DNA from: Schmidtea polychroa
Taxonomy: Eukaryota
Assembly: GCA_044892525.1 (NCBI GenBank)
Contig: CM097885.1
Location: forward strand, 8,310,001 to 8,374,000
Length of the DNA: 64,000 bases
Direction: 5' to 3'
Part shown: piece by piece, positions 1 through 62,727 of the stretch
Layout of the letters: each line of letters opens with the position of its first letter
How positions within the stretch are numbered: position 1 is the stretch's first letter
Notes under the pieces: generated by a model
The model's database searches: none
What the model saw: the letters and a program-made list of their open reading frames with translations, nothing else
What the model was told of the DNA's origin: nothing
Translations under genes and position numbers: made by a program

Positions 1-1736
1 AGTGAAAAAATAATCTGGACTGAGGAATGTGAGAAAGCTTTCGAAGAAATGAAAATGGCGTTGACTACAGCGCCAATTCTCGTATTTCCAGATTTCAAGA
101 AAGAATTCATATTAGATACAGACGCAAGCTTTGATACAATTGGAGCTGTATTATCACAAAGAGATGAAATGGGGCATGAACACGTTATTGCATATGGATC
201 CCATGCAATGAGTAGCCATGAAAGAGGATATTGTATAACACGAAAAGAGCTTTTGGCTATATATTATTTCTGTCGCCATTTCAACCATTATTTATACGGT
301 AAACGGTTTGTTTTGCGCACTGATCATAAAGCAATAACTTTTATGTTAACGACAAAGAAGCCGATAACAGCACAGTTCCAAACGTGGATAAATTACTTGA
401 GCAGTTTAGACATAAAAATGGAGTTCAGAAAAGGTACGGCGCATACGAATGCAGATATGCTGTCTAGAAATACATGCGGCAAATGTGTACAATGTTTGAT
501 GGACCATGATAACCCCAAATCAGGGCGATTAAAAACTAGATTGTTAACATTGATGACCGAAAATAATGGAAATGAATGGCAAAGAGATAATGCAGAAATA
601 CAAGATATAAAAGATCAAATAAATGAAAGGAAAAATAATAAATATATATATTAAAAGGAAATATTATCTATACCAATCAAAACAAAATATGGATACCAGA
701 AACAAAAAGACGAGAAATGATTAAGGAAACACATTTATTATTATGCCACGCAGGAATAGAAAAAGTTATGAAATATATTAGGAACAATTTTGATATGGAA
801 GATTTGCTAAATGAAGTAAAAGAGACTATTTCAATATGTGAAGCATGCCAGAAAAACAAAGTTTTAACTACAAAGTCAAAAGAAAAAACCCAAGTAATTC
901 AAGCTTCAGAACCTATGTAGAAAATATACATGGATATTTGCGGTCCATTAAGAGAAAGCTTCAGAGGAGAAAAATATATTTGTGCAATAATCGATCATTA
1001 CAGTAAATACATATCTCTAACTCCTATTAGAAAGCAAGATGATAATACAATAAAGGCAGTTTTGTTAAATAATTGGATATTGAAATTTGGAGCCCCTAAG
1101 GAACTACATGTTGATTGTGGAAAAAATTTCGAAGCAAGTAGCATTAAAGAACTAGCAAAGGCAGCAGGAATTGAGTTGATATTTTCGAGTCCGTATCATC
1201 ATAATACTAATGGTGTAATTGAAAGACAATTTCGTACTATAAGAGACTATATTAACGCGTCACTCAGAGAAGGAGTTAAAAAAAGCTGGGCAGAATTAAT
1301 ACCTGATATAGAATACGTTTTAAATGCGACAGCTCAAAAAGCTACTGGAGTGAGTCCAGCAGAAATTATTTTTGGAAGAAAGATTAATAGATCGCAATGG
1401 CATAGTAATAATGAAGTGGATAGAAATGAAATCATGCGGAAATTAGAGGCTAAAAGACAGCAAGCGAAAGAAATTGGCACAACTAGGAACTTAGAAGTGG
1501 GGGACAAAGTATTGGTGAAACAAGAAATTAGAAACAAAGATCACGAGAGATATGAAGGACCATACACAGTAATAAAACGAAATCATGAAAGAAGTTATTT
1601 ATTAACAGACGAAAACGGAAGAAAAATAACGAGGAATATAGAAAAGTTAAAGCATTTTAAAGAAGGGGGATGTAAGGAGTTAGTAAACCTCTATATAAAA
1701 TTATTATGGTTAAATGGTAGAAGTGAGATCAGTTAG
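1..1736 (+). pseudogene. pol: Ty3/Gypsy pol 3' part (RT connection/RNase H, H2C2 zinc finger, integrase, GPY/F), disrupted
   Basis: RNase H motifs ILDTDAS, ELLAI, LRTDH, NADMLSR (49-654). H-x4-H...CEAC finger (717-920). Integrase MDICGP/HVDCG/NGVIER and EGPY (930-1736). Frameshift near 650 and stop at 918-920. Confidence 0.95.
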
Positions 1737-1848
1737 TAGAAATAATTATTTCTGTTAAATTTGTATATTTAAATTCTATATTAAATTATATCATATTATA
1801 TTAAATTATATTAAATTAAATCAATTAAATGTATGACCAGTAATTACA
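1671..1848 (+). repeat. 3' LTR of the Gypsy element (178 bp)
   Basis: Polypurine tract AAGAAGGGGGA ends at 1670, directly followed by TGTAA; the matching TTACA ends at 1848. Confidence 0.75.
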
Positions 1849-2159: not shown

Positions 2160-2789
2160 TTACGTCGAAGTCTTCTCCTTTAACCATTTCTCTCGGTATT
2201 CCTTGTTAGAATATTTATCCTTAGGGCTTCGCGTGGTTTTCAACTTTATAACTTCATTTTTAATATCTTGGATTATTTGATTTGATTTCATTATTTCCTC
2301 ATCTGTTAGGATTCCATCCTCCATGGCTTTCATCTGAAATAAAAATAATTTAGATATCCCCAAGTCGATTGCCAGACAAACTTCACTATATAAGCTTTTC
2401 TTTTTTGAAGTATAAGATAAAGAAACTATTTCAGTCAAGAAAGAATCAGCTACAGAAATACTTCCAAGGATTACGGGCGCAAGAGTAATAGCCGGTAGGG
2501 TTATAGGCAAAACAATTGTAAGTATTGCAGATGTAAATCCCAAGGAGTAACCTATAATCTTTAAAGCTGTATTCCCTCTATTCCATCTATTTTTTATTTT
2601 TTTATAATGACGAAGCAAGTCTTTTAAATGTAAAGTCTCTGATTTAAATTCTTTCACCCTCATGACTTCAAGTTCTGTAGGAGCTGATGGACGAAGGACC
2701 TCCGGACAAAGGACCTCCGGACGAAGTCCCTCTATCTTTGGATATTGTACTTCTGGACTTCGTACTACTGGACTTTGTACTGTTTCCAT
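2160..2789 (-). CDS. membrane protein of the Polinton/adintovirus 'GasderminX'-like type
   Basis: Basic YKKIKNRW, long hydrophobic segment, then KKK...KAMEDGILTDEE, a pattern I recall from this family. Confidence 0.6.
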   Translation of the reverse strand: METVQSPVVRSPEVQYPKIEGLRPEVLCPEVLRPSAPTELEVMRVKEFKSETLHLKDLLRHYKKIKNRWNRGNTALKIIGYSLGFTSAILTIVLPITLPAITLAPVILGSISVADSFLTEIVSLSYTSKKKSLYSEVCLAIDLGISKLFLFQMKAMEDGILTDEEIMKSNQIIQDIKNEVIKLKTTRSPKDKYSNKEYREKWLKEKTST

Positions 2790-2797
2790 TTTAATAC

Positions 2798-3085
2798 TTA
2801 AAAAATCAAGACTTTATTATCTGGTACCAACGCTCGAATATCATAAGAAACTCTTTTTGAGAGAATGTCTTTATACAATTCTACCAACGCTTTACGAACT
2901 TCATCAACATCAACCTTTTTTTCATAAAATATTAAATCTATATAACTTACAAGTGTGCTTTTAAAAATAATATTCTTACTTTTAACTTTATGTGTTTTAT
3001 GTGAATCAGTTTTATCATGCCAATGTCCATGTGGTAAATCATAACCAGTTATTATAACCCTTTTCAAACTTACTATTATAATCAC
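2798..3085 (-). CDS. hypothetical protein, probably the frameshifted C-terminus of the fibre-like ORF
   Basis: Only a GTG start; overlaps 3039..3707 by 47 nt. Confidence 0.45.
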   Translation of the reverse strand: MIIIVSLKRVIITGYDLPHGHWHDKTDSHKTHKVKSKNIIFKSTLVSYIDLIFYEKKVDVDEVRKALVELYKDILSKRVSYDIRALVPDNKVLIF

Positions 3086-3707
3086 ATTTTACAAACCATT
3101 TCATTGTTTCACCATCATCATTAAATAAAAAGAAATAAGGATCAATAATCTTTACAACCATAAAACAAGACCATTCTTTACTATTTGTTGTTATAAAAGT
3201 TGGTTCTATAAAATGTTTATATGTATGGGGTAATAATGTATTATTCTGTTCTAATTCAGCAGCTCTTTTTCTAATAGTGTGTGATTTATCAACATGTGTT
3301 GTATGAGACTCTAATTTAACAAGTCTTACATTAAATGATGCAATCATCTCATTTATTATATTATATATTGTATTAAATTTATTATCCATAAGTTGTAATA
3401 TGGTAGTATTTAACTTTACAACTTGTTCAGTTAACAAACTTTGTAACTTATCAAATTTATCATTAAATCGTTGTTCGATATTATTAAGCTTTGATTCAGT
3501 ATAATTTTTAACACCATCAACATATTTTTTATTAGTTGCATCAAAATCATCAATCGGAGGACCTAAATCTTTTATCTTGTGAGCATTTAAATTTAAATCA
3601 CCCTTCATTGAATCCCCTTTTTCATTAATAAATCTCTTTTCTGTAATGGTTATAACATCTTCATCTTTTAGTCCATCATTGTACAACCCCAATTTATTAT
3701 AATTCAT
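3039..3707 (-). CDS. fibre/tail-fibre-like protein with coiled coil
   Basis: GDSMKGDLNLNAHKIKDLGPPIDDFDATNKKYVD motif (phage/PLV fibre-type), then a heptad-rich helix; lies directly after the penton gene. Confidence 0.65.
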   Translation of the reverse strand: MNYNKLGLYNDGLKDEDVITITEKRFINEKGDSMKGDLNLNAHKIKDLGPPIDDFDATNKKYVDGVKNYTESKLNNIEQRFNDKFDKLQSLLTEQVVKLNTTILQLMDNKFNTIYNIINEMIASFNVRLVKLESHTTHVDKSHTIRKRAAELEQNNTLLPHTYKHFIEPTFITTNSKEWSCFMVVKIIDPYFFLFNDDGETMKWFVKCDYNSKFEKGYNNWL

Positions 3708-3745
3708 TTTTATAGGATAAACATAGACTTCTTTCAGAATGACTT

Positions 3746-4492
3746 TCAGACTTGTTTCAAATGTAAATACATTGTAATCCTTTCTCCGTTAAAGTCAATT
3801 AGCTTTCCATCTTCATCAACAATTCTAAAACTAATATCCATTAGGTTTTTTCGACATAAAGGTAAATAATTTGGAGGATTCATTCTTTCAACCATTTTAT
3901 ACCCAACTCGAACAGTATTAGATGGAAAGGAATATAAAATATTTGCATGTTTACCGTTATTATATGAACCTGTTATACAATCACATTCTATATTTATAGA
4001 ATTTGTATTTGTTATTTGTATAATATTTTTAGATTTAATAGTTCTTGTTGTTACTTGTAGATGTTCTCTGGCTTCAAAACCTAAAATAGTATGAAGGAAA
4101 CTAGAAGCAGTAACCTGAAGTCTAATATCTTTTAAAGTTGCAATACATTTTGAAGTTTGAACATCTACTTTTATTTCTATAGCTCCATCTGTTTCTTTTT
4201 TAATTGCTTTACCTAAATCTGTTATTTCATATGATCCTGGTTCGATTGTTATAATTTTGGGAATCGGATCAATCCTCGTTATTATTTCAAATTTATTATT
4301 ATCAGTATTTATATTAAAAATAGTATTAAAACATGAAAACCACAAGAGTCCTAGTTCATAATTTAAATCTTGATCTAAATTTATAGAATCTTCAAAGTTT
4401 ATAGTAAAATCTGATTCTTTTGAATTTATTAATAAACTTCTTGAATATTTACTCGACATTATGTTTACCATTTTTTTTAGATTGTCTTCCAT
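3746..4492 (-). CDS. minor capsid protein (penton, single jelly-roll)
   Basis: 248 aa with FNIN..NNKF, IEPGSYEI, LGF, SINIECDCITGSYNNG, DEDGKLIDFNGE motifs. Confidence 0.85.
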   Translation of the reverse strand: MEDNLKKMVNIMSSKYSRSLLINSKESDFTINFEDSINLDQDLNYELGLLWFSCFNTIFNINTDNNKFEIITRIDPIPKIITIEPGSYEITDLGKAIKKETDGAIEIKVDVQTSKCIATLKDIRLQVTASSFLHTILGFEAREHLQVTTRTIKSKNIIQITNTNSINIECDCITGSYNNGKHANILYSFPSNTVRVGYKMVERMNPPNYLPLCRKNLMDISFRIVDEDGKLIDFNGERITMYLHLKQV

Positions 4493-4493
4493 T

Positions 4494-4964
4494 TTATAGT
4501 AGAGGTTTTAAATCTTTATAAATTTCACGGATTATCCCCTTGAACTCGGTCCCATTGTTTAATCTATACAAAACATATAAACTTAAAACCCCACATATTT
4601 CAGTATTATCAGGTTGAACTTGTAAGGAATTAAAGGTGTAGCCTTTCGGGGAACTCTTCGAGAGATAATCTTCTACTTCTTTAGTAGGTTTAATCCCAAA
4701 AGAATCAAAGTATATTGGGACTTCATCCATATATATACAAACCCAATGAGATCCTTTTTCATTTGAATTTTGATAATTTATTATTATATTATCCTTTGGA
4801 GCTTTGACTTTCAGACATTTGACCTTCAGACTTGACAATTCATCATTCATTAATATTTTAATTTTTAAATTTAAATAATCCGCATAATCTTTTAAATCAA
4901 AATTTGTTTTTGCATTTATTCCATATGTTTTTAAAAAATCTAATACCCCCGGGACAGCCTTCAT
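4494..4964 (-). CDS. adenain-like cysteine maturation protease
   Basis: Catalytic motifs GSHWVC, YFDSFG and Q...ICG. Confidence 0.92.
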   Translation of the reverse strand: MKAVPGVLDFLKTYGINAKTNFDLKDYADYLNLKIKILMNDELSSLKVKCLKVKAPKDNIIINYQNSNEKGSHWVCIYMDEVPIYFDSFGIKPTKEVEDYLSKSSPKGYTFNSLQVQPDNTEICGVLSLYVLYRLNNGTEFKGIIREIYKDLKPLL

Positions 4965-5790
4965 TTTATATATTTTTTAAATTTACTTTTTGAAAGCATT
5001 CCTTGAGAGAATAAATATTTTGAAATCTTTAAAATATCAGGATCTAAATTATTATGTCCTGCTTTTTTAGCAGCTAATAGTTTTCTCAATTCTATGAACT
5101 TAGAGATCGGATCTAGGCCATTGCCTTCTTTAACAACATAACCCTTTGGAATTTTATTTAAATAATTCTTTAAATCTTGAATGTGTTTAGCTTTTGGACT
5201 ACCATTTATTAATTTTATAAAATTTAAATATTTTTCAATTTCTTCAACATCATCTGAAGAATATCCACAAATTAATCTATAAAAATCATCTGTAAATTCA
5301 AAGTCTAAATATTCATTATTATAAACATTTTGAGAATGAATACGATTTTTACCTTCAGAGTTTATATATAAAGTAAAGTTTTGTTTATTAATTGTTATAA
5401 TTTGATATCCTTCAGGAGTAATATTAAATATAGGTTTAATTGAATCAGATAAACCCTCTGGGATTTTAGGATCAACTTTAAGAGGTTTTGTATTTAAAAA
5501 CATTTCTTCTTCCACACCTGAGAGTTTTCTACGTTTTCTTTGATTTCTTCCTTCGGTAGAATCTTCGATAGGACCTTCGGTGATAGCTTTACGTCCTATA
5601 GGACCTTCGGTGATGGCTTTAGTCCTTGGACTCTCTATAGCTTCTATCGCTTTAATTATTGGTTGTTGTTGTTGAGTCATTGCAGTATTTAATGCTAAAG
5701 ATTGAGAGCGTTGAGTCGTATCTTTTATATTATACTTGTCTTGTTCTGATTGTATTTTTTTTAAAGTGCTAATCTTTCTTCGAATACCAT
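4961..5790 (-). CDS. conserved Polinton hypothetical protein; true start probably ATG ~5790 with a 1-nt frameshift near 5763
   Basis: C-terminal ELRKLLAAKKAGHNN motif. Upstream MVFEERLAL joins KKIQSEQ... if one T is added. Confidence 0.65.
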
Positions 5791-5804
5791 TTTATACCCT
5801 CAAT

Positions 5805-6452
5805 TTACCATATTTGACCTTCGGACATTTGACCTTCAGACTCTATTTGACCTTCGGACTCTTCTTCTTCTTCTTCAGACCCAACAGCTTGTAAATATAA
5901 ACCTTTACCTTTTTTCTGGGGAGTTCCTCCAAGTTTACAAAGGCATCCTTTCTTTAAAGATTTACACATTTTTTTTAAATCATCTTTATCTTTTAATGAT
6001 AAAGATTTATCTTTTAAAATTTGATTTTTTAAAAAATCATTTAAGCCTCGACCTTTATAAGGATTGAGATATAAACCCTTTCCCTCATATGGGTTAAGAT
6101 AAAGCCCCTTACCCTTGGACTCAGTCCCCTTCTTCAATGAATTGATTTCAGTTTGAAGTTTTTCTTTTTCCAAGTCTGTCTTTTGAGATTCTTTAGCTTT
6201 TTGAACTGTAGTTGCAATTCCTCCAGCTATTCCAGCTGCACCTGATAGGCCGGCAATGATTGCAGGTATTAAAGCAGCTAATGGAAGAATACCACCCTTG
6301 GACGAAGTCCCCTTCTTAGTTGAAGACTCCTTCATTCTCTTCTTAACTTGTTCTTTTACATGTTTTCCAATAAAATATTTTTTTCCATTAATTACTACAG
6401 ATTTACTCTTGTTTGAATTTATTAATTCCTTTAAAGATTCTTCAGTTGTCAT
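5805..6452 (-). CDS. basic virion core / membrane-lytic precursor protein
   Basis: KGG followed by amphipathic ILPLAALIPAIIAGLSGAAGIAGG; repeated GKGLYL motifs; lysine-rich with acidic tail. Confidence 0.7.
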   Translation of the reverse strand: MTTEESLKELINSNKSKSVVINGKKYFIGKHVKEQVKKRMKESSTKKGTSSKGGILPLAALIPAIIAGLSGAAGIAGGIATTVQKAKESQKTDLEKEKLQTEINSLKKGTESKGKGLYLNPYEGKGLYLNPYKGRGLNDFLKNQILKDKSLSLKDKDDLKKMCKSLKKGCLCKLGGTPQKKGKGLYLQAVGSEEEEEESEGQIESEGQMSEGQIW

Positions 6453-6467
6453 TTTTTAATAAATAAA

Positions 6468-7247
6468 ATGGATACTTGGAAACCGATTTTAACTCGACAC
6501 AAGAGTAAATTTAATAATAAATTATTTCCTGATAATTTTAGATTATTAATCGTTGGGTCTTCGGGATGTGGAAAGAATGTACTTCTTTTGAGAATATTAC
6601 TAGAAGAAGGGTTTTTAGATTATAATAATTTAATCTTTTATTCTACAACCATAAATCAACCAGAATTACAACTTTTGAAATGTGGATTTGAAAATAAATT
6701 AACTAAAAAAGCTATAATTGATATTTTTAAAAACCAACATAGATGTCCTGATGAGGTTTTTCACCCTTGTGATATGATTGATTGGTACAAGGAAAAGATT
6801 TTAGAATCAGATATTGATAATAAAAATGATTACGTCTCCGAAGGGATCCAAGTTTTATTCTCTAATAAATCTGAAGATGTTTTGCATTGCGATTTACTTC
6901 CTAAAGATAAAAAGAATCTAGTTATATTTGATGATGTCGTCAACATGAAAAACCAAGAGATTCAAAAGAGTTACTTTACACGAGGTCGACATAATAATTG
7001 TAATGTTATTTATATATCTCAAACATATTATGCTTTAGATAAAAATTCAATAAGAAATAATTCCAATTGTTTTATATTTTTTGAATTAGAAAAGCGTGAT
7101 AAGAATATAATTTATAGTGATTTATTTTCAAATGTTGAACCTGATAAGCAAATGTTTGATATGTTTGTAGATAATCATTGGAAAGAAAAATATAATTATA
7201 TTTATTTGGATAGAGAAGAAGGAGAAATATGGAAATGTTTATTTTAA
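6468..7247 (+). CDS. A32/FtsK-like DNA packaging ATPase
   Basis: Walker A GSSGCGKN, Walker B LVIFDD, arginine finger RGRHNN, ISQ, IRNN. Confidence 0.93.
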   Translation: MDTWKPILTRHKSKFNNKLFPDNFRLLIVGSSGCGKNVLLLRILLEEGFLDYNNLIFYSTTINQPELQLLKCGFENKLTKKAIIDIFKNQHRCPDEVFHPCDMIDWYKEKILESDIDNKNDYVSEGIQVLFSNKSEDVLHCDLLPKDKKNLVIFDDVVNMKNQEIQKSYFTRGRHNNCNVIYISQTYYALDKNSIRNNSNCFIFFELEKRDKNIIYSDLFSNVEPDKQMFDMFVDNHWKEKYNYIYLDREEGEIWKCLF

Positions 7248-7251
7248 GTGG

Positions 7252-8567
7252 TTAGAAATCTGTTTTCTGTAGTTCATTATTATAAAATCTACCTAATATT
7301 TTTTCATTATTTAAATCAATGATGCCATATGTTATTGGAATTGTATAATGTATTTTATTTATAATAAAAATTTCATTTGTCCATTTTGCTGTGAATCCTT
7401 TTTCAAATTTATTTTTATATTTAAATATTCTTACTCGGTCACCAATTTTAAACTTTGGTTTTTCATTTACCTCTTTAACAGTTTCAGGATTATTATATTC
7501 ATTTACAATCTTTTGTAACAATTCATTGTTCCATTTTTGTTTTCCAATAGCCGTAAAATATTTCCACATTTTATTTTTTAATGTTCTATTTAATCTTTCA
7601 ACTACGACTGCTTTTCCTTCGTTTTCTGTTGAATATAATTTAATATCATTTTCATTTAAAAACTTTGTAAAAACTTTGTTATAAAATTCTGTTCCTTTAT
7701 CACACCATAAATATTTTGGGATTCTTTGATTTTCTTCAAATATATTTTCAAATGCTTCTGTAATTGAATATCCTGTTTTGCTTTCTAAACATCTTGCAAA
7801 AGCAAATCTTGTATATAAATCTATTACAGTTAAAATTATTTTATATTTTTCGGGGTCTGATGATTTGGTTGGCATAAAGACTAAATCGGCAGACCATGTT
7901 TGATCTTTTTCATGTACTTGAACTTTTAAATATTTTTTATTTTTTCTAAATTCATGGTGTAATTTATTGGCATATTTTATTTGTGATTCTGTTGGGGTTT
8001 GTAAATTTGTAGAATTAGTCTTGGATCTTTCAGTGTCTGCTTGTTGAATAATCTTTTTATTAGCAATATCTTTTGCTATTCTAGGGTGTCCAGCTCCAAA
8101 AAAGATCTTACCTTTCATTGCTAATTTCACTAGTCCTGCTTGAATCTTTTCTTGGATTGATGGATTTTCTATATTATTTAAATCATGTATTAAATTAACA
8201 TCTGCAAGGTGTCTATCCCTAAGGTCTTCAGAATTGTAAGCAATATCATGTTTTAAAGCTGCTTGATCAATTCTATTCACTGGTTCTTCTCCAGGTTTGG
8301 GATTATTATTTTCATCTAATCTAAGGTCTAGACGTGTTCCAGGTCCAGTAAAATTGTGATGGAATAAATGTCTTTCACCTGGAAATTTTCAGTAGTAAAG
8401 GGTTTCAATATTGAAGATGTTGTTTTTGAAGATTGAAGATCTCCTCCAATTCGAGATGGCTCTAGCCGAGATGTATGTTTTTTAGTTTTAACATGACTTG
8501 CTTTATGATGTTTTCTAACTTGACAATTACAAATTTCACATTTCCAATATGGTTTATTTAGAGACAT
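7252..8567 (-). CDS. C2H2 finger + parvovirus-type PLA2 + retroviral-like (rve) integrase fusion, with one -1 frameshift at ~8385
   Basis: CEIC...H...H finger (8328..8567 ORF). The -1 frame gives KFPGERHLFHHNFTGPGT...PVNRIDQAALKHDIAY and runs open into integrase ADLV / WCDKGTEF / VVERLNRT. Confidence 0.88.
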
Positions 8568-9837
8568 TTTTTATAGAGATATTATCACCTCGTACATTTT
8601 CAATAATTGAAATCTTTCCACCATATAATTTCATTTCTATTTTCTTTTCTTCTAATATTAACGTATATACTTTAGCTTTAAAATTAGAATCCTTTGTTAT
8701 ATGAAGTGTAACATCAACATTATTTATAGCTAGACGATCATCTTGATCTGATACATTTATACAAAATATAGAATATAAATTTTTGAAATCTTCTAAACTT
8801 AATTGCGGTTCAACTTTAAAATCATAACATGTTTCAATATAATTTAGATATGGGAATATGTTTTCATTATTTTCAATATTAAATTCCATTCTATTTATTG
8901 GATAATAAGAACTATTTAATTGAATTTGGATTGATTTTAAATTATCATCTCCAATCTTTTGAATAAACAAGTTGTTATTTTTTTGGAAAGATGAATCTGT
9001 TTCTTTGAATCCAATCAAGATATATCTCGGTCGGTATGCTAAATTTGCTACCTTTATAGAATATGTTGATTCACTACAGATTCTATTTAAATAATTTACA
9101 TTTATAGATTTGTTGGAATTTAATCTTTCAAGGAGTTTGATTTCAGATTGAGGATTTAATGTCCATTCAGGTATATGTAATTCAAGTGTTGATATTTTTA
9201 ATTTAGCTTTTGTATCTGCAGCTCCATAGAATATTGTTTTATCATCTTCTTTTCTATTACATATTAATTCTATAAAAACATTATGAAGTACTCGGTTATA
9301 GTTTTGAAGGAATCCAAATAAGTGTTTTAATTCAAAATAACCCTCAAATTTTTTAGATTTATAAAGTTCTACTCTTTTATAATATCCATAATTTATATCT
9401 AAACCATCTTTATCTAAATCACCTTTATTAGTATCAGGAATCCAACCTGTTAATTCTCCACTTTCATTTTTATAATCACAACCAGTTAAAATAAAATATA
9501 TTCCTGGATATAAAATACTTTCAATTTCTGATGATCCTAGTTTTAATCTCATGTTATTAAATAAGTTTGGAAAGAAATTGTTTTCTAGAGTTATATTTTT
9601 GTTTGCTTCAATTTCTAATTCAATTTTGTAATATAATTTTGTATTACAAATATCTATAGGGTTTGAGGTTTGAAGGGATTGAAAAACTATATCTCCTCCA
9701 CGATTTAAATTTGCAATCGATCCTGACGTAGGGGATATTTTTAAAATATCATTTTTTTTTATTTCATGCATAAACTCTTTATTATAGTCAAGATTTAATT
9801 TATTTTTTTCTGAAATCTCAAGATTTATATTATTCAT
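8554..9837 (-). CDS. major capsid protein (double jelly-roll)
   Basis: 427 aa with NNFFPNLF, LKHLFGF, RPRYILIGF, QLNSSYYP, FKNLYSIFCIN, typical of Polinton/PLV MCPs; context agrees. Confidence 0.85.
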   Translation of the reverse strand: MNNINLEISEKNKLNLDYNKEFMHEIKKNDILKISPTSGSIANLNRGGDIVFQSLQTSNPIDICNTKLYYKIELEIEANKNITLENNFFPNLFNNMRLKLGSSEIESILYPGIYFILTGCDYKNESGELTGWIPDTNKGDLDKDGLDINYGYYKRVELYKSKKFEGYFELKHLFGFLQNYNRVLHNVFIELICNRKEDDKTIFYGAADTKAKLKISTLELHIPEWTLNPQSEIKLLERLNSNKSINVNYLNRICSESTYSIKVANLAYRPRYILIGFKETDSSFQKNNNLFIQKIGDDNLKSIQIQLNSSYYPINRMEFNIENNENIFPYLNYIETCYDFKVEPQLSLEDFKNLYSIFCINVSDQDDRLAINNVDVTLHITKDSNFKAKVYTLILEEKKIEMKLYGGKISIIENVRGDNISIKNVSK

Positions 9838-9877
9838 TTTTTTATTTATAAATTAGCAAACTGCGCCAACTGCTATA

Positions 9878-10110
9878 TAGTAGTATATAAACCTTACACC
9901 CGATCCACAACTCCCTTTTTAAGAGCTTCCCTTCCATAATTCAACACAAGAGGGTGGTTGTTTTTGAAAATATAGGGTGAAAAGGATGAAAAGACTTGAA
10001 AAACCTGTTAGATTTTTATATAAAAGTGTAATTTTTAAAGGATGGAAAGGTATGCATTTGGTGATCTTTAAGGGGTGGGGGTGGTCGGGTGTAAGGTTTA
10101 TATACTACTA
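9878..10110. repeat. terminal inverted-repeat (fold-back) segment, 26-bp perfect arms
   Basis: TAGTAGTATATAAACCTTACACCCGA (9878-9903) is the exact reverse complement of 10085-10110; imperfect pairing continues ~20 bp inward. Confidence 0.9.
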
Positions 10111-10200
10111 GTTAAATTAAATATTTAATTTAATTAACTTATTTTAATTAATTTATTAAATAATAAAATATAAATTAAATAGGTTCACTATCATCGCTAG

Positions 10201-10328
10201 CAGGGCCGTCTTAAGAAATTCGGCCCCCGTGGGCTACTGGAAATAATTAACAGAATTAAATTTGCCGCCCTAACAGGCTTGCACCCTATCGCTATAGCCC
10301 ATTTAGCCCTGTGATTAGAGCGGCCCTG
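10201..10328. mobile_element. hAT-type MITE
   Basis: TIR CAGGGCCG.../...CGGCCCTG; 8-bp TSD ATCGCTAG/ATCGATAG. Confidence 0.85.
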
Positions 10329-11558
10329 ATCGATAGATAAGAAAAGCAAAAACTTCGTAGATTTTAAATCGATTATTTTAAAAAATTATAAAAATTTATG
10401 AAGCAAATAATTGTTTTTAAAATATTTTTAAAAAATGCAAAATAAATTTTAAAATTTTAAAATTTTTATAAAATTTAAGAATTTTTGTAATTTATAATTT
10501 TATTCATTTAACACAAAACACCACATGCACTCGTTTTAACATTATAATTATTTGAACACATTTAAAACACAAGTATTCACATCAGATTATACATTGATGA
10601 TGATTATTTTTCTAAGAGTTTCGGAAAGCATTAGGAGAGAGGATAGCCAGACGTTTTGCCCTTCATCCTTCCCATCAAGGATATTGTGAAGAAGCTACAG
10701 CATTTATTCTGAACACAAACGTAACTGTTAGTTCAAACAATATCGAAAGTGAGCCAGGCATATGAGCAACGTCTTCATATGAAAGACCTTCAAAACATCA
10801 TTAAATTCTGAAAGTCCAAAGTTCTAATGTAGATTATTTAATATCAAAGCGACTATTCCAGCAGATTTTTGACAAGATGGAAATTTCGCTGGATAATAAA
10901 GCGAAACTGATTCGTTGAATAAAGAATAGTAATATTGTCTGCAATATTCAGAAGGCAATTGGTATACCTGATGGATGTACATGGCACTAGATGACAATGA
11001 CCTTGACAATGACCTTGACAGAGAACCCTGCCCAAGAATAGAAATTACAGCCGAGTACTCTGATTTCTTGTATTCTCTGATAAACAAATAAATAAATAAC
11101 AAAACAAATCCTACCAATCAAAGTTTCAAGCGCAACAAATAATAATTAATTCCAGCAGCTGGCGAGTGTCTAGCGGAATTTGAATGAATTCAACTAAGCT
11201 CCAGCGAACGGCAGGAGTATTCTTTGTATTTTCAATCTCATCACCTTTCTGTTTCGGTATTCATTAGACTTTGCACAATGAAGTAGTAACCACCTTTATT
11301 AATTTTCCCGATTCTTTCCTTCTTCTTTTTGAACCCTTCTTAAATACATCTCTTTCAATCCGTTTAATATTTATCTGTTTTTCTTAAACTTAAGTTTTTC
11401 GTCTCTATCTGAAGCAAAGTGCCAATTTTTGACCAATTTAATTTCATTTATTTAGTAAAATAATTTATTTAATTAATGACTGTTTGACAATCACTTAACA
11501 ATTTTTTCTTTCGGCTTTCTTACATGTTTATATCATAAAAAAATGAGCTTTCCTTACA

Positions 11559-18719: not shown

Positions 18720-19780
18720 ATTCCAAATAACTGGAATTGTTACAAGAATCCGCAAAGCCGCCTAAGGATTTGGCACTGTGCTTTTCAATTTATTGTCATT
18801 TATATAGTTCAAAGATTTGAAAGGGTCATTTGCATCATTTGGATTTAACTGTGACAATGTTTCGATTTCCTCACACAATTCAATCCCATGCATATATCCA
18901 GGGGCGCTCCAAAACCATTTGCAAAAAAAAATTCATTTTGTAAAATAAAAAAAATTACGACTATTTTGTCATTGAATGCTCATTAAGCTTAATTTGTATA
19001 TACCTGTTATTATCTTGTCAAAGTCATTTAGTGTTTTAATTTTTGAACCAAATCAACATTTCAAGTTTTAAAATTTATAAAAAACAATAAAAAGATTTTT
19101 ATTTAAAAAATTAGAGATATACATTACGATTTTTTAGATTAGAAAGCAGGATTAAATTATAGAATTTGGTAAATATAATGCGATGTTTGCTATATTTTTG
19201 TTAACAAATATTGTTATGATGTACGTTAGATATGCTCCAGGAACGTTTTGCAATTGAACATGAAATCCTAGATAATTTAGATATGCATGACTTAATTTCA
19301 CAATTTGCTTTGAACAAAGCAAGAAAGGTCTCTTTTTGTGAGTAGGAAACTATTAATTTCATAAACTTTCTATTTTTTGTGTGTACTAAACTATAACATT
19401 CCTAAACCTCTCTGTTTTGTGATAAATAAACTATAATTTTCATGAACTATTGCATGTGATATGAATGTTATTCCGTAGTTAGTTTAATTTTTACTTTAAT
19501 TAAAATGCTATTTTTATTTTGGATTATTGAAATTTTTTTTAAGAAAGGACGGGGAACGACAGGAAATTATTTTGCACGCAGGCGGCCTAATAGCTCGGTG
19601 CGCCTCTCCATATCTCTGCTTGTCTCGTCAGCTAATCTTACATGTAAGCCTTTGCAATTCTTCATCAGCTCATTACGATTTGTATTATTTTTAATATTGA
19701 ACAGAAAGACTCTTTGAAATCTTCCGTTTGTTGAAACCTTTTGGATATAGACACCAACGACTGCAGCATACCATTAAAAA
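18720..19780 (-). pseudogene. old hAT transposase C-terminal fragment, split by the MITE at 18899-19608
   Basis: Flanks join to ...DETSRDMHGIELCEEIETLSQL...ALRILVTIPV. Confidence 0.6.
18899..19608 (+). mobile_element. non-autonomous deletion derivative of the adjacent hAT element
   Basis: Both ends match the 19884-23713 element in opposite orientation; retains DMHDLISQFALNKARK coding; TSD CATATATC/CATATCTC. Confidence 0.85.
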
Positions 19781-19883
19781 CGTGATTTTTGTAGTATTTG
19801 TAATATTAATACTGTATAAAAAAATAGATATACAGTGAGCAAATATTTCATTATATTGGTGAGCACAATAAGGGCTGTGAGAG

Positions 19884-22800
19884 CAGGGGCGCGCCGAGCT
19901 GTTAGGCCGCTTGAGTGCAAAATAATTTCCCGCCGCTCTTCATCCTTGCTGCAAAAATGTTTCTATAATCCAAAATAAAAATAACATTTAATTAAAGTAA
20001 AAATTAAACTAACTATGGAAGAACACACATATCACATGCAATAGTTTATGAAAATTATAGTTTATTAATCACAAAACAGATAAGTTTAGGAAAGTTATAG
20101 TTTAGTACACACAAACAATAGAAAGTTTATGAAATTAATAGTTTACTACTCATACAAAAGTGACTTTTCTTGCCTTGTTCAAAGCAAATTGTGAAATTAA
20201 GTCATGCATATCTAAATTACCTAGGATTTCATGTTCTATTGAAATTATTGATATATTACTTAAACGTTCCTGGAGCATAGTTGATCGTAAATAATTTTTA
20301 ATTATCTTCAATTTTGAAAACGATCTTTCACCTGTTGCAACTGAGATTGGTAATGGTAATAGAATTCTGGTCACAATAAATATATTTGGGAATGTTGCCT
20401 GAAGATCATTTTGTAAAATATATAATAATATAGATTGAGGTTTAATATCTTTTTCTTTTAAAAATACCTTTATAGTTTTTATCTCTTCGAATAAATCAAT
20501 TCCATTAATATCGGACTCATTTCTTTGTTCGTCAGTTAATTTTAAATGTAAATCTTTGCAGCTTTTCAAAAGTATTTCTTCTGTTATATCTTTAATATTA
20601 TACATAAATCCAAATACATCTCCTTGACTAACTCTAAAGCCTTCAATCTAACTTCTACAGTGGATATTGAGGAACCTGAAAATCGCCTTTCATGAACATA
20701 TTCAACTAATTTTTTCTCCACGTCAGGAAAAAATAATTTCCTCCCTCTGCCAGGGGCCTTTGTAGAGGATCTGCACTCTTTTAAAGTATTTTTATTATTT
20801 CTCCAATGCCTTACATTAGCTTCACTGAGTCCATATTCTCTAGATGCTCCTCTATTTCCGATACGTTCGGCTGCTTCAATTACCTTCAATTTGAAACCTG
20901 TCGTATAACTGCAGCGTTTAGAAGACATTATAGGGAAATAAAAATTTAAATTTAAGTAACTGAAATTTTAATTTTAAACAAAAAATAAATTTAATGTAAT
21001 ATAAATTTAATGTAATATAAATTTAATGTAATAATTATACATGCGTCTTATATTTGGGTTACTTATATTTTCTTGAATTCAGTCAATTTTTAATGATGCG
21101 TCTTATATTGGATGCGTCTTATATTCGGATAATTACGGTATATCATTATACGATTTTAACGCTTCGAATCTTGTTGTAATTGATACTAATGCTTGGTCGA
21201 TAATGCAGATATAAAAGTTAATTTTAAAATTTGTTTTTGGATCTAATATTCGTTCATCCTTGCCTTCATAATCAAAATTTGTTGTTTTTCTTCTTATTCT
21301 TAAACTTGAAACTTCTGGAAATTTAGGTTCTACGTGTAATTTTTCGGCTAATTCACTAGCTGATGTAAGCATTTTTTCAAATCCATTATCATTACGACAA
21401 TATTTAAAAAACTCTATTAAATCATCTAACGCGGTAACGCTTCTATTGATATGGGTGTTTGGGTTCTGTAATATTTGACTAACAACATTAATTTTCATCA
21501 AAATTTCATGCCAAATAACAATGGAACATAAATATCGATAACTTGATATTTTTAGTGAAAGAGAATTTGCCACATGTCTGGTTTTAAAGTCAATCAATTG
21601 ATCATTTGATATTTCAAGAAGAGATTTATAAATTTGTTCAGTATGATACCTTAGTGGTTGTATGGCATCAATTCTACTTGACCACCTTGTATCGCTCAGG
21701 AGTTTTAATTTTAAATTCGGTAAATATTTTACTATTATCGCCCATCTTTTAATTGACGCCGAAAAAACTACATATATTTCTTGTACTAAATCAAAAAATG
21801 TTACTGTTTTCATGTGAAATATGTGCCGCATCATTAACAACTAAATTTAAGCTATGAGCAGAACATGGTACAAAAATTGCTCGCGGGTTGATATTTAAAA
21901 TTCTTTTTTGTAAGCCATTATGCTTTCCTCGCATATTGGCACCATTGTCATATCCCTGTCCACGCATATTATGAATATTTAAATTTAGATTTGAAAGTCT
22001 TTTGAAACAAATTCGGTTAACCCCTCGCCGGTAGTATTTGTTATTTGATAGAAACCCAAAAAATGTTCACGTATTTCAATTTTTTTTGATTCCAAATTCA
22101 CAATTCTTATTACAATAGTTAATTGCTCAGTATGACTAACATCTGGTGTGCAATCTAATATAATTGAAAAATATTTTGCTTTTCTAATTAAATCTAATAT
22201 AGCGTTTTTAATACTTGTGCTAATAATATTGATAATTTCGTTTTGTATTTTATCCCCCAAATAATGAGGCATATATTTCAAATTGTTTCGAGACTTTTCA
22301 ATCCGTTGTACATGCTCTTGCATAATAGGGTCAAATCTGGCAACCATTTCTACTGCTTTCAAAAAGTTTCCATTGTTATTTGCATATAATTGATTTGACT
22401 TTCCTCTTATGGCAAGGCATTACCTAGAAAGATATTGAATAATAGATATTATTCGTTGAATTACTTCATACCAATACTTTCGTTCGGCTTTAAATAGTCT
22501 TTGGTTCGCACTATCAACTGTAGTATTATTTTTTAATGATTTATTTAACAATATCCATTTTTTTATATTTTCATTATGAAACTGACTTTTTTCGTGTCGA
22601 GACAAAGTTAACGATAAATGTTGCCAATCAGAAAAACCAGATGAATCGGATAGACTGCTTTTATCACTGAAATCAAATATCCTACAGCAAAAACAATACA
22701 CAGAATTTTTAGTAATTGAATACACAAGCCATTCGCGTTGTGTTTCTTCTCCGTTCGGCAATTGTCTTAAATAATACTTTTTTGAAAATTTACGCCCACT

Positions 22801-32900: not shown

Positions 32901-33917
32901 ATTTTTAGAAATTAAGCTTCAATAAATTCAAATCATTTTGTGGAAATAACAGTGCTTCAGGATATGTTTGATATATAATCTTAGCAGATAAATACAATTT
33001 TTTTATTAGAAAGCTTGACTATGAATCAGTAAATATATCGATGTTTTTGATATTCACCAATTTTCGGCACTGCCTTTTTCAAATGATTTTCAAGATTTTT
33101 AATAAATACAATGTCAATTGAAAAGAAATCAGTGTTGAAAATTGAAAAAAGTTCTTATAATAGTTACAATATTTTAGTTTCAAAGTTCAAATATTCATTT
33201 TGCAAACATGTTTATATACTACTCGTAAATGGTTAATCCAATTACTCTACTTTAAATGAATTCAATTTACAATACGTAATTCAAATGTTGTGCTTATAAT
33301 AAACAATACCATCCTCTAATATTGGATAACCCGGTGAGTAATGTGTAATTGAAAGTTTAAACATCTGAAAAATGTTACCCGTGAAACTCTTGGATATTTG
33401 TCAAGCTAAGAACGATTATTCTCCCATATTCCTTTCATGTTCCCCATATTTATATATTTTATGTCCTTTTAGACTTTTTAATGATAAAATAAAGGAGTAT
33501 CCATTAAAATCACAAAAGTGTTTTATTGTTGAATTTATCATAACAGTGAGTTTCACAAGGGTCAATGTACAATTTCAATAAAAGAAATCTCATTTATATA
33601 CATACGAAGCACCATCGAATCGAATAAAATAATAAAATTGCATGCTGAAGGAGGAGGAAATTTGCAGAATGTAATCCGTCCGAAATAGAAATGAGAATTT
33701 ACAGTAAAAAAAAGGTCACATCTGAAATAGTCTATCGAAGAGAGCCTTTACATAAGAAGGCACAAGAGTGAATGGATTTGACAGCACAGAAATAGATTTC
33801 CAACAAAAAAAGAACAAATCTCCATGCAAAAAATAGATCCAAAATGAAAAGACTTTGTCTAAGTTATTTAGAACAGTTGCAGAAATAAGATTTAATAAGA
33901 AAAATCTATGAAGGCTT

Positions 33918-43049
<9,132 letters not shown>

Positions 43050-43456: not shown

Positions 43457-45694
43457 TTAAAAAATTGTATAAATCATGATCAATATATAAAAACATAAAA
43501 TCTCCAAAAGTCCACCGACTAAAATAGTGCAAATCGACGTCGTTACAACAGAATAACTAGAAAGATCTTTGACAAAATTCACAAACAATTTGCAATTTGC
43601 TAAATTTTTTAATATTTTTATCTGATAAAAGTCTTTCAAGGAGTTGAACAGTTTGTCGAATGTTGAACTGATTTCTTGGTCGAAAATTCTGTGGAAATGT
43701 ATGATAATTAAACTTTTGTTTTTTATGTTCAACTGAGATTGATAAATATCGGGGAAAAGTGTTTTAAATTTTTCGGGTAAAAATAAATTTTTTTCTATCG
43801 CTTGAAAATCCTTGAACAGGGTTTGAATTATTTTGTGGTTGGTAAAAATTACATTGTCAATTCCAGAAAATAAGTTTTCCATGGGAATAGCTGTTAATTT
43901 TGAACATTTAGAAAGCCGGATTTCGTGCATCAGTTGTTTTATGTGATTGATATATTGTAAAATTCCAAGAACCGATTTCAGGTTCATTTCATTATCTTTT
44001 TTATTGAGAATCTTTCGAAGAAAGTCGTAAATTACGTTTCCGTATTCTTTTTTTATGTCAGGAAACGATATTTTCTTTAATAAATCAATAATTTTCTTGT
44101 CAGAACTCATTTTTGATGTCATAATGAGCTTTTGGAAAAAATTAGATTTTTTAAGTGCTTCAAAATTGATAATTGAATCGAATTTTAAAATTGTGAAAAT
44201 TGATTGAGAATGAGTGCAATTATCTTTTATATACCCCAAACTTTGATTTGGAAGAGTTGTTGGTAAGTTAATAAAGGCTTGATATTCTCCTAATCTTGTA
44301 TTGATGTTCGTTTTGATATCGGTCCATATGTTGTTAATATGTTTTGACAAGATTATGTCGACTTTTGAAAAGTTTTCATTTTCTCTCTCAAAATATCGGA
44401 GACTTTCATTATATATAGCTGTCAGCATGACTAAAGAGAGCACCAGCAAAACTGATGTAATTGTTAAAAATAAAATTATCAAAATTATCAAAATTATCAA
44501 AATATTCGATGTTTTTGGAATCCTTTTGTTGAAAGTGAATATTATAATGAAAAGATATTCAAAGTAGTTTATTAAGGCGTAGACTGTAATAGTGAAAACC
44601 TCTAACGCTCTCAAATGAGTGTCAATATATTTTGAATCCTTGAAAGACTTTTCTGTTATCTTGTGGATTTTAACAGCATAGTCGGACATAATAATGAAAA
44701 TCTGGTTTTTCTTTACCTCAATCAAATCTAAAGGAATATTTCTTTTGAAATCAGCCAGTGCTTCTGGCGCTACCTTATTCATGTCTCTGTTTATTTCATC
44801 AAATTCCTTTTTGATTTTGAGGATATTCACATCCATTGGGACAAATTCGTGAATTTTTGTGATAAAAATCGAACTATCAAATTTCAAATTTGTGTTCGGC
44901 TTGTTATTGGCAATAATTTGTAATAAATTATCGATTTCAGCACAGTTTTTGTACCGAGATAAATTTAAACTCTTATCGGAGAAAAGATCTGAGATCGATT
45001 CAAGTTTACCGATTGATTTTAGCACTTGGGAATGGTGCCATTTGCTATAGAAAGAAATTCTATGAAACGAACTGTTGACTAACATGAGATTTTCTATGAA
45101 ATTTGGCATTTCTTTAAATAGGGTCTTCACTTGAAGGTCCACCATCAACCGGGACATTATTGCAAAGATCGTCGAATTGATTATTGTCGTAGAATTTTCT
45201 ATAATAGAATTGAAATCAACTTTTTTCTGAAAATCAATCAAAGAATGATTTACGAATGATTGGAATTGGAATAAAGATTGATTCCCAGAACGATAGAAAG
45301 TGGAATTCGTAGAAAATGTCGATGATAAAAATGCAACTTTTAATGAAAAACTTATTATTAAAAAACCTAAAACAAAATATATTATTCCACTCCTAAATGC
45401 GAATGGACGAAGATCTTTCGGATTTGCGAACAATGTTCGCATATATCTTCTCATTAAAACAAAGGCGATTATTGCTAACGAAATAAAGAATAGAGATAAG
45501 AGTATTGCTAGTGTTAAATAAGTTTTATTTGAAGATTTCGTAATAAAAATAGATTTCACATAATTGATCCAAGTGGAAGATTCGGATAGACGTCCGTAGG
45601 ATGATCCGTTAATCACTTTTGAAAGGTAATTGAATATCCCACCATTCTTTTCGCTTTGAAAGCCATTCATTAGATGTTTAATTAAATGATCCAT
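43457..45694 (-). CDS. intronless prominin-like 5-TM glycoprotein, paralogue A (745 aa)
   Basis: TM-TM-large loop-TM-TM-large loop-TM; many N-x-S/T sites; C-x3-QSIF-x2-L motif; aligns along its length with 60442..62727. Confidence 0.72.
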   Translation of the reverse strand: MDHLIKHLMNGFQSEKNGGIFNYLSKVINGSSYGRLSESSTWINYVKSIFITKSSNKTYLTLAILLSLFFISLAIIAFVLMRRYMRTLFANPKDLRPFAFRSGIIYFVLGFLIISFSLKVAFLSSTFSTNSTFYRSGNQSLFQFQSFVNHSLIDFQKKVDFNSIIENSTTIINSTIFAIMSRLMVDLQVKTLFKEMPNFIENLMLVNSSFHRISFYSKWHHSQVLKSIGKLESISDLFSDKSLNLSRYKNCAEIDNLLQIIANNKPNTNLKFDSSIFITKIHEFVPMDVNILKIKKEFDEINRDMNKVAPEALADFKRNIPLDLIEVKKNQIFIIMSDYAVKIHKITEKSFKDSKYIDTHLRALEVFTITVYALINYFEYLFIIIFTFNKRIPKTSNILIILIILIILFLTITSVLLVLSLVMLTAIYNESLRYFERENENFSKVDIILSKHINNIWTDIKTNINTRLGEYQAFINLPTTLPNQSLGYIKDNCTHSQSIFTILKFDSIINFEALKKSNFFQKLIMTSKMSSDKKIIDLLKKISFPDIKKEYGNVIYDFLRKILNKKDNEMNLKSVLGILQYINHIKQLMHEIRLSKCSKLTAIPMENLFSGIDNVIFTNHKIIQTLFKDFQAIEKNLFLPEKFKTLFPDIYQSQLNIKNKSLIIIHFHRIFDQEISSTFDKLFNSLKDFYQIKILKNLANCKLFVNFVKDLSSYSVVTTSICTILVGGLLEILCFYILIMIYTIF

Positions 45695-60441: not shown

Positions 60442-62727
60442 TTAGTAGAAGAAGATATACAGAATCCAAGTGAGTAAATAATAAAATAAAACTTCAATAA
60501 AAACGACAAACAGCATGATATTCAATGAAATAATAATTCTTGGATAACCAGAAAAACTGTTATAAAATCTCAAAAAGATCGAACAATCTCCGACATTGCC
60601 GAATATCAAGTTCCGATAAAAAGAATCGAATAAAATCAATATTTTCTCAGAAGTCTTCGAAATTTTCGATTTGAAATTCTCTTGAAAAGTTTCATTGATA
60701 AAATTGGTATTTCTTAAATCATTCAAAATGGACAAAACTCTGGGAAAGCTTTTCCTAAATCTCTCTGGAAAATTGAGATTTCTCTTAATGTTTTGGAAAT
60801 CCCGATAAATCAAATTGACAATTTCCATAATATTTTTCATTTCATTTTTGTTGGTGATGAAAAATTTATTAAAAATCTTGTTAATTTGATAGTCGAATTC
60901 TGTGCAATTCGAATCGAGAATCTCATTGGTCAGAATTTTAAACGTTTGGAAATAATTCGAAATTGATTGGATGGTTTTTAAGTTGTTTTCGGTGTCGTTT
61001 CGATTGAGAATTTTTTCAAGACAATTGGAAATTATCGATCCATATTTTTGATCGATTATTGGCACGTTCAAATTTTTGATAAAGTAATCAAATTTCCGAT
61101 TGGCTCGGGATTTTATTTGAAATTGAATTTTCCGATAGATTTCCGATTGTTTGATCGAATCAATGTCAACAATTGATTGGAAATTGAGAATTGACAAAAT
61201 TGATTGGTTCATCACGCAGTCGGTTTTGATTTTATTAATTACTTTTTCGGGTAATCTTTTTGGGATTTTAAATATCGTCCGATAATTTCCGAGAAAATTT
61301 TCCGAATTAATCACAAACTTTTCCCAGTTGCTGTTTATCGTTTGAGAAAGTATTCCATCTATGATTTTTGAATTGTTGTTATGGGTTTCGAAATATCGAA
61401 ACGCTTCGTTGTATAAAATGGTCAGAACGATAAAACAAGCGACAATAACAACCGAAACCAAAGTGGAGAATATCATTGTGAAAATTTGATACGAATGATA
61501 CCACAAATAATTTCTTTTGAATTTCAAGTCGAACGTGAATGCAAAAATGAGAACGAGCTGGAAAATATTTATCATTAAATAAAAAACCGAAGCCGCAATT
61601 TTTACGGAAGTCAAAATCAAATTCATGACACCAGAAAAAATCAAAATCCCTTTCGAGGCTTTGTTGATTTTCTTAGAAATTTCGAACATTTTTGAACTGA
61701 TTTCGGTTGATTTTGAATTAATAACTCCAATCGGAAGAGTTTCCCAAAATTCATTTAGCGTTTTGTTTGGAAATTCTTTCAATGTCTTTGATAAATCTTG
61801 CAAAGTTTTTTGAATTTCATTTAAATCAATATTAACATCAATAGTTTCTTGTAATTTTTTAATAAAAATCAAACTATCGATTTTCAGTTCTACAATTGGT
61901 TTGTTGTGCGTTAAGCGGAAAAGAGTTTGATTGGTCTTTGAACATTCTTCGAATCGATTAAAATTCTGCTCTTCTGCCATCAAAGAATTGGAGATAAATT
62001 CAATTTTTCCAAGAAATTTCCATATTCCAGTTCGATTTTGTTGATTGAAATTGGAAATACGATAACAGGATTTATTAATCGATATCATTTGATCAATAAA
62101 TCTTGGAATCAATTTAAACAATAAATCAATATTCAAATCAGTTTCCAATTGAGATGCAAATTCATATATTGTAGAATTTATTGATTTTTTAGACAGCTCA
62201 ATTACTGGCATCAAATCGATTTTATTTTGAGAATCAATTAAAGAATTGTTTGTCAATTCTTCAAAATAATAAATCGAACGATTTGTCATTTCATAGACAT
62301 TGGTTTTTTCCAGAAAAATAGGGAAAATTGTCACGGTTCGTGACACCAAGCCAATGATTATGATGCTTACTAAGAAGTATGTAAATCGCCGATTGAATTT
62401 GGAAGTTTCAAATTTTAAAGACTTTCTGAATCGGACGCATCGTTTGTGGAATCTCGATTTAAAATACTTGTTGATAAAGGAGTGGATCAGAATTATCGTA
62501 ATAATTAGAAAGGTTGTCAAAATAATCGTGATCAGGATAGCGATGGCTAAGTAGAATTTATTTGATGATGTCAAATCCAAATATGAGTTCAAATAATTTG
62601 ATATCACTGTCCTATTATACAGGCAACTGTAACACGATTGTCTTACGTAATCCGACATGAATAATAAGATTCCTCCGTTTCGAGTAGGCTGAAAATTATC
62701 CATAACTGATCGTAATAGGCTGTTCAT
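60442..62727 (-). CDS. intronless prominin-like 5-TM glycoprotein, paralogue B (761 aa)
   Basis: Same topology and shared motifs with paralogue A (NGGI, NK.YL.AIL, YNE..RYFE, C...QSI..IL.F.SI). Confidence 0.72.
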   Translation of the reverse strand: MNSLLRSVMDNFQPTRNGGILLFMSDYVRQSCYSCLYNRTVISNYLNSYLDLTSSNKFYLAIAILITIILTTFLIITIILIHSFINKYFKSRFHKRCVRFRKSLKFETSKFNRRFTYFLVSIIIIGLVSRTVTIFPIFLEKTNVYEMTNRSIYYFEELTNNSLIDSQNKIDLMPVIELSKKSINSTIYEFASQLETDLNIDLLFKLIPRFIDQMISINKSCYRISNFNQQNRTGIWKFLGKIEFISNSLMAEEQNFNRFEECSKTNQTLFRLTHNKPIVELKIDSLIFIKKLQETIDVNIDLNEIQKTLQDLSKTLKEFPNKTLNEFWETLPIGVINSKSTEISSKMFEISKKINKASKGILIFSGVMNLILTSVKIAASVFYLMINIFQLVLIFAFTFDLKFKRNYLWYHSYQIFTMIFSTLVSVVIVACFIVLTILYNEAFRYFETHNNNSKIIDGILSQTINSNWEKFVINSENFLGNYRTIFKIPKRLPEKVINKIKTDCVMNQSILSILNFQSIVDIDSIKQSEIYRKIQFQIKSRANRKFDYFIKNLNVPIIDQKYGSIISNCLEKILNRNDTENNLKTIQSISNYFQTFKILTNEILDSNCTEFDYQINKIFNKFFITNKNEMKNIMEIVNLIYRDFQNIKRNLNFPERFRKSFPRVLSILNDLRNTNFINETFQENFKSKISKTSEKILILFDSFYRNLIFGNVGDCSIFLRFYNSFSGYPRIIISLNIMLFVVFIEVLFYYLLTWILYIFFY

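Follow-up and report, generated by a model that had tools for sequence, protein, structure and literature searches.

We analyzed a 64,000-nucleotide (nt) stretch of the Schmidtea polychroa genome, here referred to as the window, whose left part carries a Polinton/adintovirus. Its major capsid protein (MCP), a double jelly-roll protein of 427 amino acids (aa), is encoded on the minus strand at 8554..9837 (Pfam PF21738, E value of 7.7e-23). A second minus-strand open frame at 7252..8388 combines a PLA2-like domain (PF08398, E value of 1.1e-8) with an rve integrase (PF00665, E value of 5.5e-12), and a packaging ATPase lies on the plus strand at 6468..7247 (PF04665, Pox_A32, E value of 2.9e-10). 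Further viral open reading frames (ORFs), partly unnamed, were found by ORF calls and Pfam on the minus strand at 2160..6452. They include a pX-like ORF at 5805-6452 (weak PF05829 match) and two ORFs at 4494-4964 and 3746-4492, which match ORFs of the metagenome contig L002 at 46% and 36%, respectively, and which, going by motifs and size, we take to encode a putative protease and a putative minor capsid protein. The L002 contig (1-9190) is a more complete relative of the lineage; it carries protease-like, minor capsid and major capsid genes as well as pPolB (1403 aa, cut), and its capsid protein is 50% identical to that of the window. The first 1848 nt of the window (1..1848, plus strand) hold the 3′ part of a Gypsy-type retrotransposon with RNase H, integrase, a purine tract and a putative 3′ long terminal repeat (LTR) at 1671-1848, the limits of which were set by eye from its TG...CA ends. 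The left side of the viral element is thus cut by the Gypsy insertion and by the window start. Just right of the Gypsy LTR, an 81-aa ORF at 1888-2133 on the minus strand gave no Pfam or usable ESM Atlas hit. To the right of the capsid gene (9837), the window contains no viral protein match.

The rve integrase, the double jelly-roll MCP, the packaging ATPase and an (AGT)2//(ACT)2 motif at the right end are among the features by which Polintons, or Mavericks, are recognized, and all four are present here. The element also has a PLA2-like gene (PF08398) in its virion module; PLA2-like genes are described as a mark of Alpha adintoviruses (PMC8502044), a Mayetiola-class group with which it further shares integrase, capsid and ATPase. 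In that account the adintovirus gene is PLA2X, with a pX domain, whereas here the PLA2-like domain lies in frame with the integrase. In the metagenome locus L001 the two domains likewise share a frame, with a single stop separating them. Relative to all seven of the seven aligned relatives, the MCP carries two short in-frame deletions, and three-frame translation showed the PLA2 part to be preceded by no start codon; because of these two defects, we regard this copy, judged by its reading frames, as decayed. A sequence-only reading of this DNA had taken pPolB to be missing. The L002 pPolB indeed found no match in the window at E ≤ 1, but absence from the element does not follow, since the element loses its left side to the Gypsy insertion and the window start. 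Likewise, a Rep/HUH nicking enzyme gave no Pfam hit among the 10 viral ORFs scanned, which cover the element up to this cut on its left side.

Next to the capsid gene lies a short, non-coding unit with terminal inverted repeats. A perfect 26-bp inverted repeat at 9878-9903 and 10085-10110 bounds 233 bases and carries AGTAGT/ACTACT on its arms, just as the sequence-only reading had described. Counted from motif to motif, the unit measures 231 bp (9879-10109) and has 25-bp arms, or 26 bp including the flanking T/A. The inner arm (9879..9903, plus strand) opens with the Polinton end motif (AGT)2, and at the outer arm (10085..10109, minus strand) the element ends in (ACT)2, with ACTACT at 10104-10109. 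The distance of 40 bp to the MCP start codon is also as previously read: the ATG lies at 9837 on the minus strand, and these 40 bp form the leader of the capsid gene (9838..9878 with one base added, minus strand), with a putative insertion point at 9878/9879. The motif TATAAAC is present within both arms (9886-9892 and 10096-10102), its outer copy being directed towards the capsid gene. Allowing up to 3 mismatches, we found exactly two occurrences of the arm in the 64-kb window, compared with 0 expected from 100 shuffles, and the chance expectation for a 25-bp pair within 300 bp is 7e-7. Perfect short inverted pairs are themselves no rarity in this window: others of 20-45 bp lie at 34917, 35262, 54537, 62925 and 19273. 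Two lesser candidates were dropped: ACTGCT just left of the unit, considered as a decayed viral right end, lacks the adjoining arm sequence, and a 14-bp arm match at 33210-33223 is a chance match (E value of 0.14, no extension).

Several other repeats and genes lie in the same window. A 128-bp MITE (miniature inverted-repeat transposable element) at 10201-10328, 91 bp right of the unit, has short GC-rich inverted ends and a flanking duplication matching at 7 of 8 positions; we take it to be hAT-like. The pair at 19273 belongs to a fold-back of about 950 bp (19273-20219) with arms of 45 and 158 perfect bp, adjoined by hAT and Tc5/pogo-type transposase fragments at 20150-22347. Two ORFs of 745 and 761 aa (43457-45694 and, on the minus strand, 60442-62727) gave no Pfam hit and share a 62-bp stretch at 71%; they are possibly related. 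A TALE-type homeobox exon of a host gene (PF05920) lies on the minus strand at 33918-34388.

Beyond the perfect arms, the likeness between the two sides of the unit soon fades. The roughly 20 bp of additional imperfect pairing claimed by the sequence-only reading can be recovered as 30 of 31 matching positions with one gap, but it is weak: ungapped, only 8 of the 16 positions beyond the arm agree, and the anchored extension was equaled by 9 of 400 same-composition shuffles (0 of 400 with the composition of the unit). Over positions 26-75 the alignment is at chance level, since 51% of the shuffles reach the same likeness, and the inner 66 bp resemble the outer ~75 bp in a loose gapped alignment. 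The whole unit folds at −40.3 kcal/mol (z = −7.1), which none of 200 shuffles equaled. With the perfect arms removed, folding was no better than in shuffles (159 of 200 as good; z = +0.87), and the inner 139 nt showed no structure beyond them (119 of 200 as good; z = +0.30). A search of Rfam over 9700-10400 gave 0 matches at E ≤ 1.

The stem energy and the geometry of the unit bear on the proposal of the sequence-only reading that this is a parvovirus-like, self-priming hairpin. Paired with 9879, the 3′ end of the plus strand at 10109 is directed into the virus, so that it could fold on the inner arm and let host polymerase copy the genome, rendering pPolB dispensable; the integrase or an unseen nuclease would then cut the inner motif to resolve the end. 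The inverted terminal repeat of adeno-associated virus (AAV) shares the terminal stem and a 3′ end that would point into the genome, but AAV ends are described as needing Rep nicking and inner palindromes and as showing flip/flop (PMC1131931), whereas here we saw no inner palindromes, no Rep gene and no flip/flop, and 140-180 nt of unstructured loop separate the arms. That pPolB has no match in the window speaks for such a hairpin only as far as the cut element allows, and L002 encodes this polymerase. The geometry of this option fits, but its pPolB premise is lost and AAV-like inner palindromes are lacking, and we consider it very improbable. We give equally low credence to its extended form, in which the ends of a whole subfamily would be fold-backs with two attachment sites: the 3′ tip on the inner AGTAGT would prime copying and the integrase, cutting the inner motif, would double as a terminal resolvase, so that ends could be replicated or repaired without terminal-protein priming.

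No target duplication of 4, 5, 6, 7 or 8 bp flanks the unit, in agreement with the sequence-only reading, and the 64 kb contain no second copy of it. Both results weigh against a free 231-bp mini-Polinton, a MITE-like element moved by Polinton integrase and leaving solo copies elsewhere, to which the correct end motif at both edges and the short, non-coding sequence would otherwise lend themselves. Its right-hand duplication might have been lost by adjacent deletion or by use of the unit as the end of something larger. Still, the arms are far shorter than a deletion derivative of a parent with long terminal inverted repeats (TIRs) would keep, and we consider a free mini-element improbable. A short unit with an attachment-type motif at each of its edges could also suggest an LTR-like arrangement, with the 231 bp standing in direct orientation at both ends of the element and solo copies arising by recombination. 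Polinton ends are described as inverted repeats (10.1101/2023.08.22.554363, PMC8097293, PMC3014272), the window holds no second copy and no observation suggests direct repeats; this is the least credible of the readings considered.

The base composition of the unit revealed that it has two halves of opposite polarity. An inner piece of 71 bp (9879..9949) is C rich on the plus strand (22 C, 5 G), resembling an element end that faces away from the virus. The outer piece of 160 bp (9950..10109) is C rich on the minus strand (48 G and 8 C on the plus strand), like the element's right terminal repeat. Both pieces begin at an end motif and are C rich when read inward. The strand bias switches at 9947-9949, and the switch, scored without the arms, was reached by 0 of 20,000 shuffles. 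In composition, the unit thus resembles two ends, of 71 bp and 160 bp, placed back to back.

The locus was then compared over 9219-10208 with contigs from public sequencing runs, four of 15 (X1, X12, X13 and X14) from two studies; the results rest on contigs only, and on the 40 (of 94) variant rows, the 24 (of 452) loose ends and the 32 (of 6461) pieces listed. Contigs of X12, X13 and X14 join the outer arm to the host flank of the window, and hence the locus is real. Together with an X13 contig that joins leader and arm, they rule out an assembly artefact. This contig (record 22) covers 9839-9973, differs from the window by 7 letters and 1 gap, and bridges the junction between the leader and the inner arm; a diverged sister or allele thus has the same junction, which exists in more than one version. 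Other sisters differ at this point. Among the contigs listed, 10 in X12 and 2 in X13 carry the capsid gene but leave the reference at 9841/9842 and enter another leader. The sequence-only reading was staked on sister proviruses keeping the inner arm, and the contigs are divided on this: these 12 take another leader, whereas the one diverged sister keeps the junction. No sister was found to read uninterrupted through 9878 among the 24 of 452 loose ends listed. The bridged junction also touches the free mini-element, as the only inner junction bridged leads to the viral leader; on its favorable side, three full-length inner contigs in X13 represent several sequence versions.

The arms themselves vary among sisters. 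In 5, 3 and 3 contigs of X12, X13 and X14, respectively, positions 9885 and 9896 of the inner arm have other bases than in the window; these variants make up 84%, 100% and 80% of the local depth, and the outer arm of the window locus is unchanged in all three runs. As two changes inside the stem, these variants count against a self-priming hairpin. So does the lack of strand-changing joints, although the contigs would drop rare forms: none of the 2 joints listed in the four runs changes strand, both being skips inside the capsid gene. The two positions that are changed in most sister inner arms are matched between the arms of the window, which suggests arm-to-arm correction, a feature of a maintained fold-back.

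Such correction would favor another account, in which the tip of each terminal repeat in the subfamily recurs further in as an inverted copy, created once by template switching of the protein-primed polymerase. The arms of this snap-back end would be kept alike by repeated arm-to-arm copying and would aid repair or regeneration of the ends, while replication would remain driven by pPolB. The loose alignment of the inner 66 bp with the outer 75 bp and, as a hint only, the presence of both halves together in several versions in X12 and X13 are in its favor. Against it stand the disappearance of likeness after 25-31 bp, with positions 26-75 at chance, and the absence of any complementary change in the outer arm of sisters among the 40 of 94 variant rows listed. 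We regard this account as the main rival of the reading preferred below: less likely than that reading, but more likely than a self-priming hairpin or a free mini-element.

Depth along the unit was also inspected, but summed contig depth is no copy number and the values that follow are hints only. Summed in this way, capsid depth exceeds inner-arm depth 179- to 515-fold, and the unit has about 4-10 times the depth of a single-locus contig. The two halves are alike: in units of a single-locus contig, depth at 9885 is 10.2 in X12 and 6.9 in X13, and at 10004 it is 8.1 and 6.3. The values at 10004 contradict the idea that the inner half is twice as common as the outer one. At least 1034 depth units in X13 cover the leader at 9869 and end by 9878, compared with 385.8 over the arm, a weak hint by which leader without arm is in excess by 5-14 single-locus units. 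This book-keeping weakly disfavors the snap-back end, and one of the two X13 depth balances would need unit copies without leader, a weak point for the free mini-element. The bin at 9945-9977 has high summed depth in all four runs, again as a hint, and 9945..9983 appears to be a block common to other repeats, which diverge after 9983 (a loose end in one contig each of X14 and X1). The X1 contigs cover the capsid gene and have gaps at 9879-9944 and 10044-10076, but a hole in contigs proves nothing, and the single outer-half contig of X14 was given no weight.

Relatives were sought in metagenomes and other databases. Of 591 candidates in a metagenome scan, at least 7 loci were confirmed. A fold-back bearing these motifs was seen in 0 of the 7, which speaks against an inherited snap-back end, although none of them reaches a terminus and they are silent on end structure. 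Only two of the 7, L002 and L003, both about 50% identical, contain the start of the capsid gene together with a long enough stretch upstream of it; in both the capsid gene is internal and adjoins a divergent gene. Searches with the exact arm pattern and with the interior 26-mer gave 0 matches in viral contigs, and the degenerate arm pattern gave 0 in prokaryote genomes. Capsid alignment confirmed 0 of 75 candidates in viral contigs and 0 of 68 in prokaryote genomes, and integrase alignment 0 of 19 in viral contigs. A generic fold-back pattern with 10-bp arms hit 11 viral loci, which we attribute to chance, their arms being only 6-11 bp long and accompanied by no Polinton protein match.

Compared with known systems, the end looks unusual. 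For Mavericks, 5′-(AGT)2//(ACT)2-3′ is given as the commonest end motif, with TIRs of 46-1447 bp and 6-bp duplications, and most genomic copies are described as decayed (PMC8097293). Our element shares with them the motif, rve integrase, A32-type ATPase and double jelly-roll capsid, but differs as follows: a single end holds both motifs, separated by 231 bp and not flanked by a duplication; only 25 bp of the arms match; and 40 bp separate the capsid gene from the unit. Hairpin ends are not described for adintoviruses in the excerpted text of PMC8502044. Our full-text literature search found no description of a Polinton end in which one short unit carries both motifs, although the supplements of PMC8097293 or Repbase could hold such units. 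In Pieris, polB-less polintons with LINE or Gypsy cargo are reported to have stayed mobile (10.1101/2025.02.07.637071); a Gypsy insertion is shared, polB is likewise not visible in the cut element, and mobilization in trans is plausible here, but the Pieris elements have ordinary TIRs at both ends, whereas here the near end is double and the far end lies outside the window. Further related literature includes PMC11296320, PMC6431247, PMC2836005 and PMC8504770.

We propose, with a probability of roughly 45%, that nested insertion and deletion joined two Polinton ends, which a low-copy, non-autonomous element then took over as its right end. The first step would have been the insertion of a Polinton into this element, at a point 40 bp upstream of the element's capsid gene; the second, a deletion of all DNA between the new left end and a right end, either the intruder's own or that of the host element. 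One left end would then have contributed about 71 of the 231 bp and one right end about 160, joined back to back. From then on the outer end would have served as the right end of the element; paired with the far-left end by integrase supplied in trans, it may have allowed the shortened composite to be moved a few times. The inner AGTAGT would be a stranded attachment site and not a working primer hairpin. In work on reversed Ac ends, transposase reportedly pairs the ends of two elements and moves the DNA between them, the inner ends staying without duplication. The same end-pairing principle of composite, or alternative-end, transposition would apply here; for Polintons it is our suggestion, and the literature found gave no instance of it.

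A fusion of two ends would account for an inner arm that starts exactly at the motif, for the loss of likeness after 25-31 bp, for host DNA directly outside the 231 bp without target duplication, and for a capsid gene unusually close to a terminus with a junction common to a sister. We favor it because the unit consists of two opposed, end-like pieces with a sharp switch of polarity, because the arms are identical over 25 bp and then only loosely alike, as expected of related but different termini, and because the interior lacks structure. It is further supported by the sister capsid contigs that enter another leader at 9841/9842, by the X13 contig that bridges leader and inner arm with 7 differences, and by the internal capsid gene of L002 and L003 together with the 0 of 7 loci having the fold-back, although L002 and L003, at only ~50% identity, weaken that support. 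The X13 leader depth, suggestive of leader copies without arm, adds a weak hint. The decay of this copy and the reports of mobile polB-less polintons (10.1101/2025.02.07.637071) are also in its favor. Three observations count against the fusion: the similar depth of the two halves in X12 and X13 fits a unit inherited whole equally well, no sister read through 9878 among the 24 of 452 loose ends listed, and possible arm-to-arm correction would favor the snap-back end. The non-autonomous derivative also offered by the sequence-only reading comes near to the fusion; it differs in that, since there is no target duplication, we prefer joined ends adopted as a terminus over the insertion of a clean mini-element.

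Taken as a whole, this is a real, unusual-looking end on a decayed and apparently low-copy Polinton. It is most likely a rearrangement product among the many Polintons of this genome; an inherited fold-back module has a fair chance and a new replication mode a small one. To our knowledge, no experiment has revealed the way in which Polintons copy and repair their termini. This is a question on which the fold-back would have a bearing if both ends carried it as a regular feature. On the fusion of two ends that we favor, the finding carries modest weight: a Polinton integrase could adopt an end donated by a nested sister, the ~25 terminal bases would be what related ends share, and such adoption would provide a simple route to shortened, helper-dependent Polintons.
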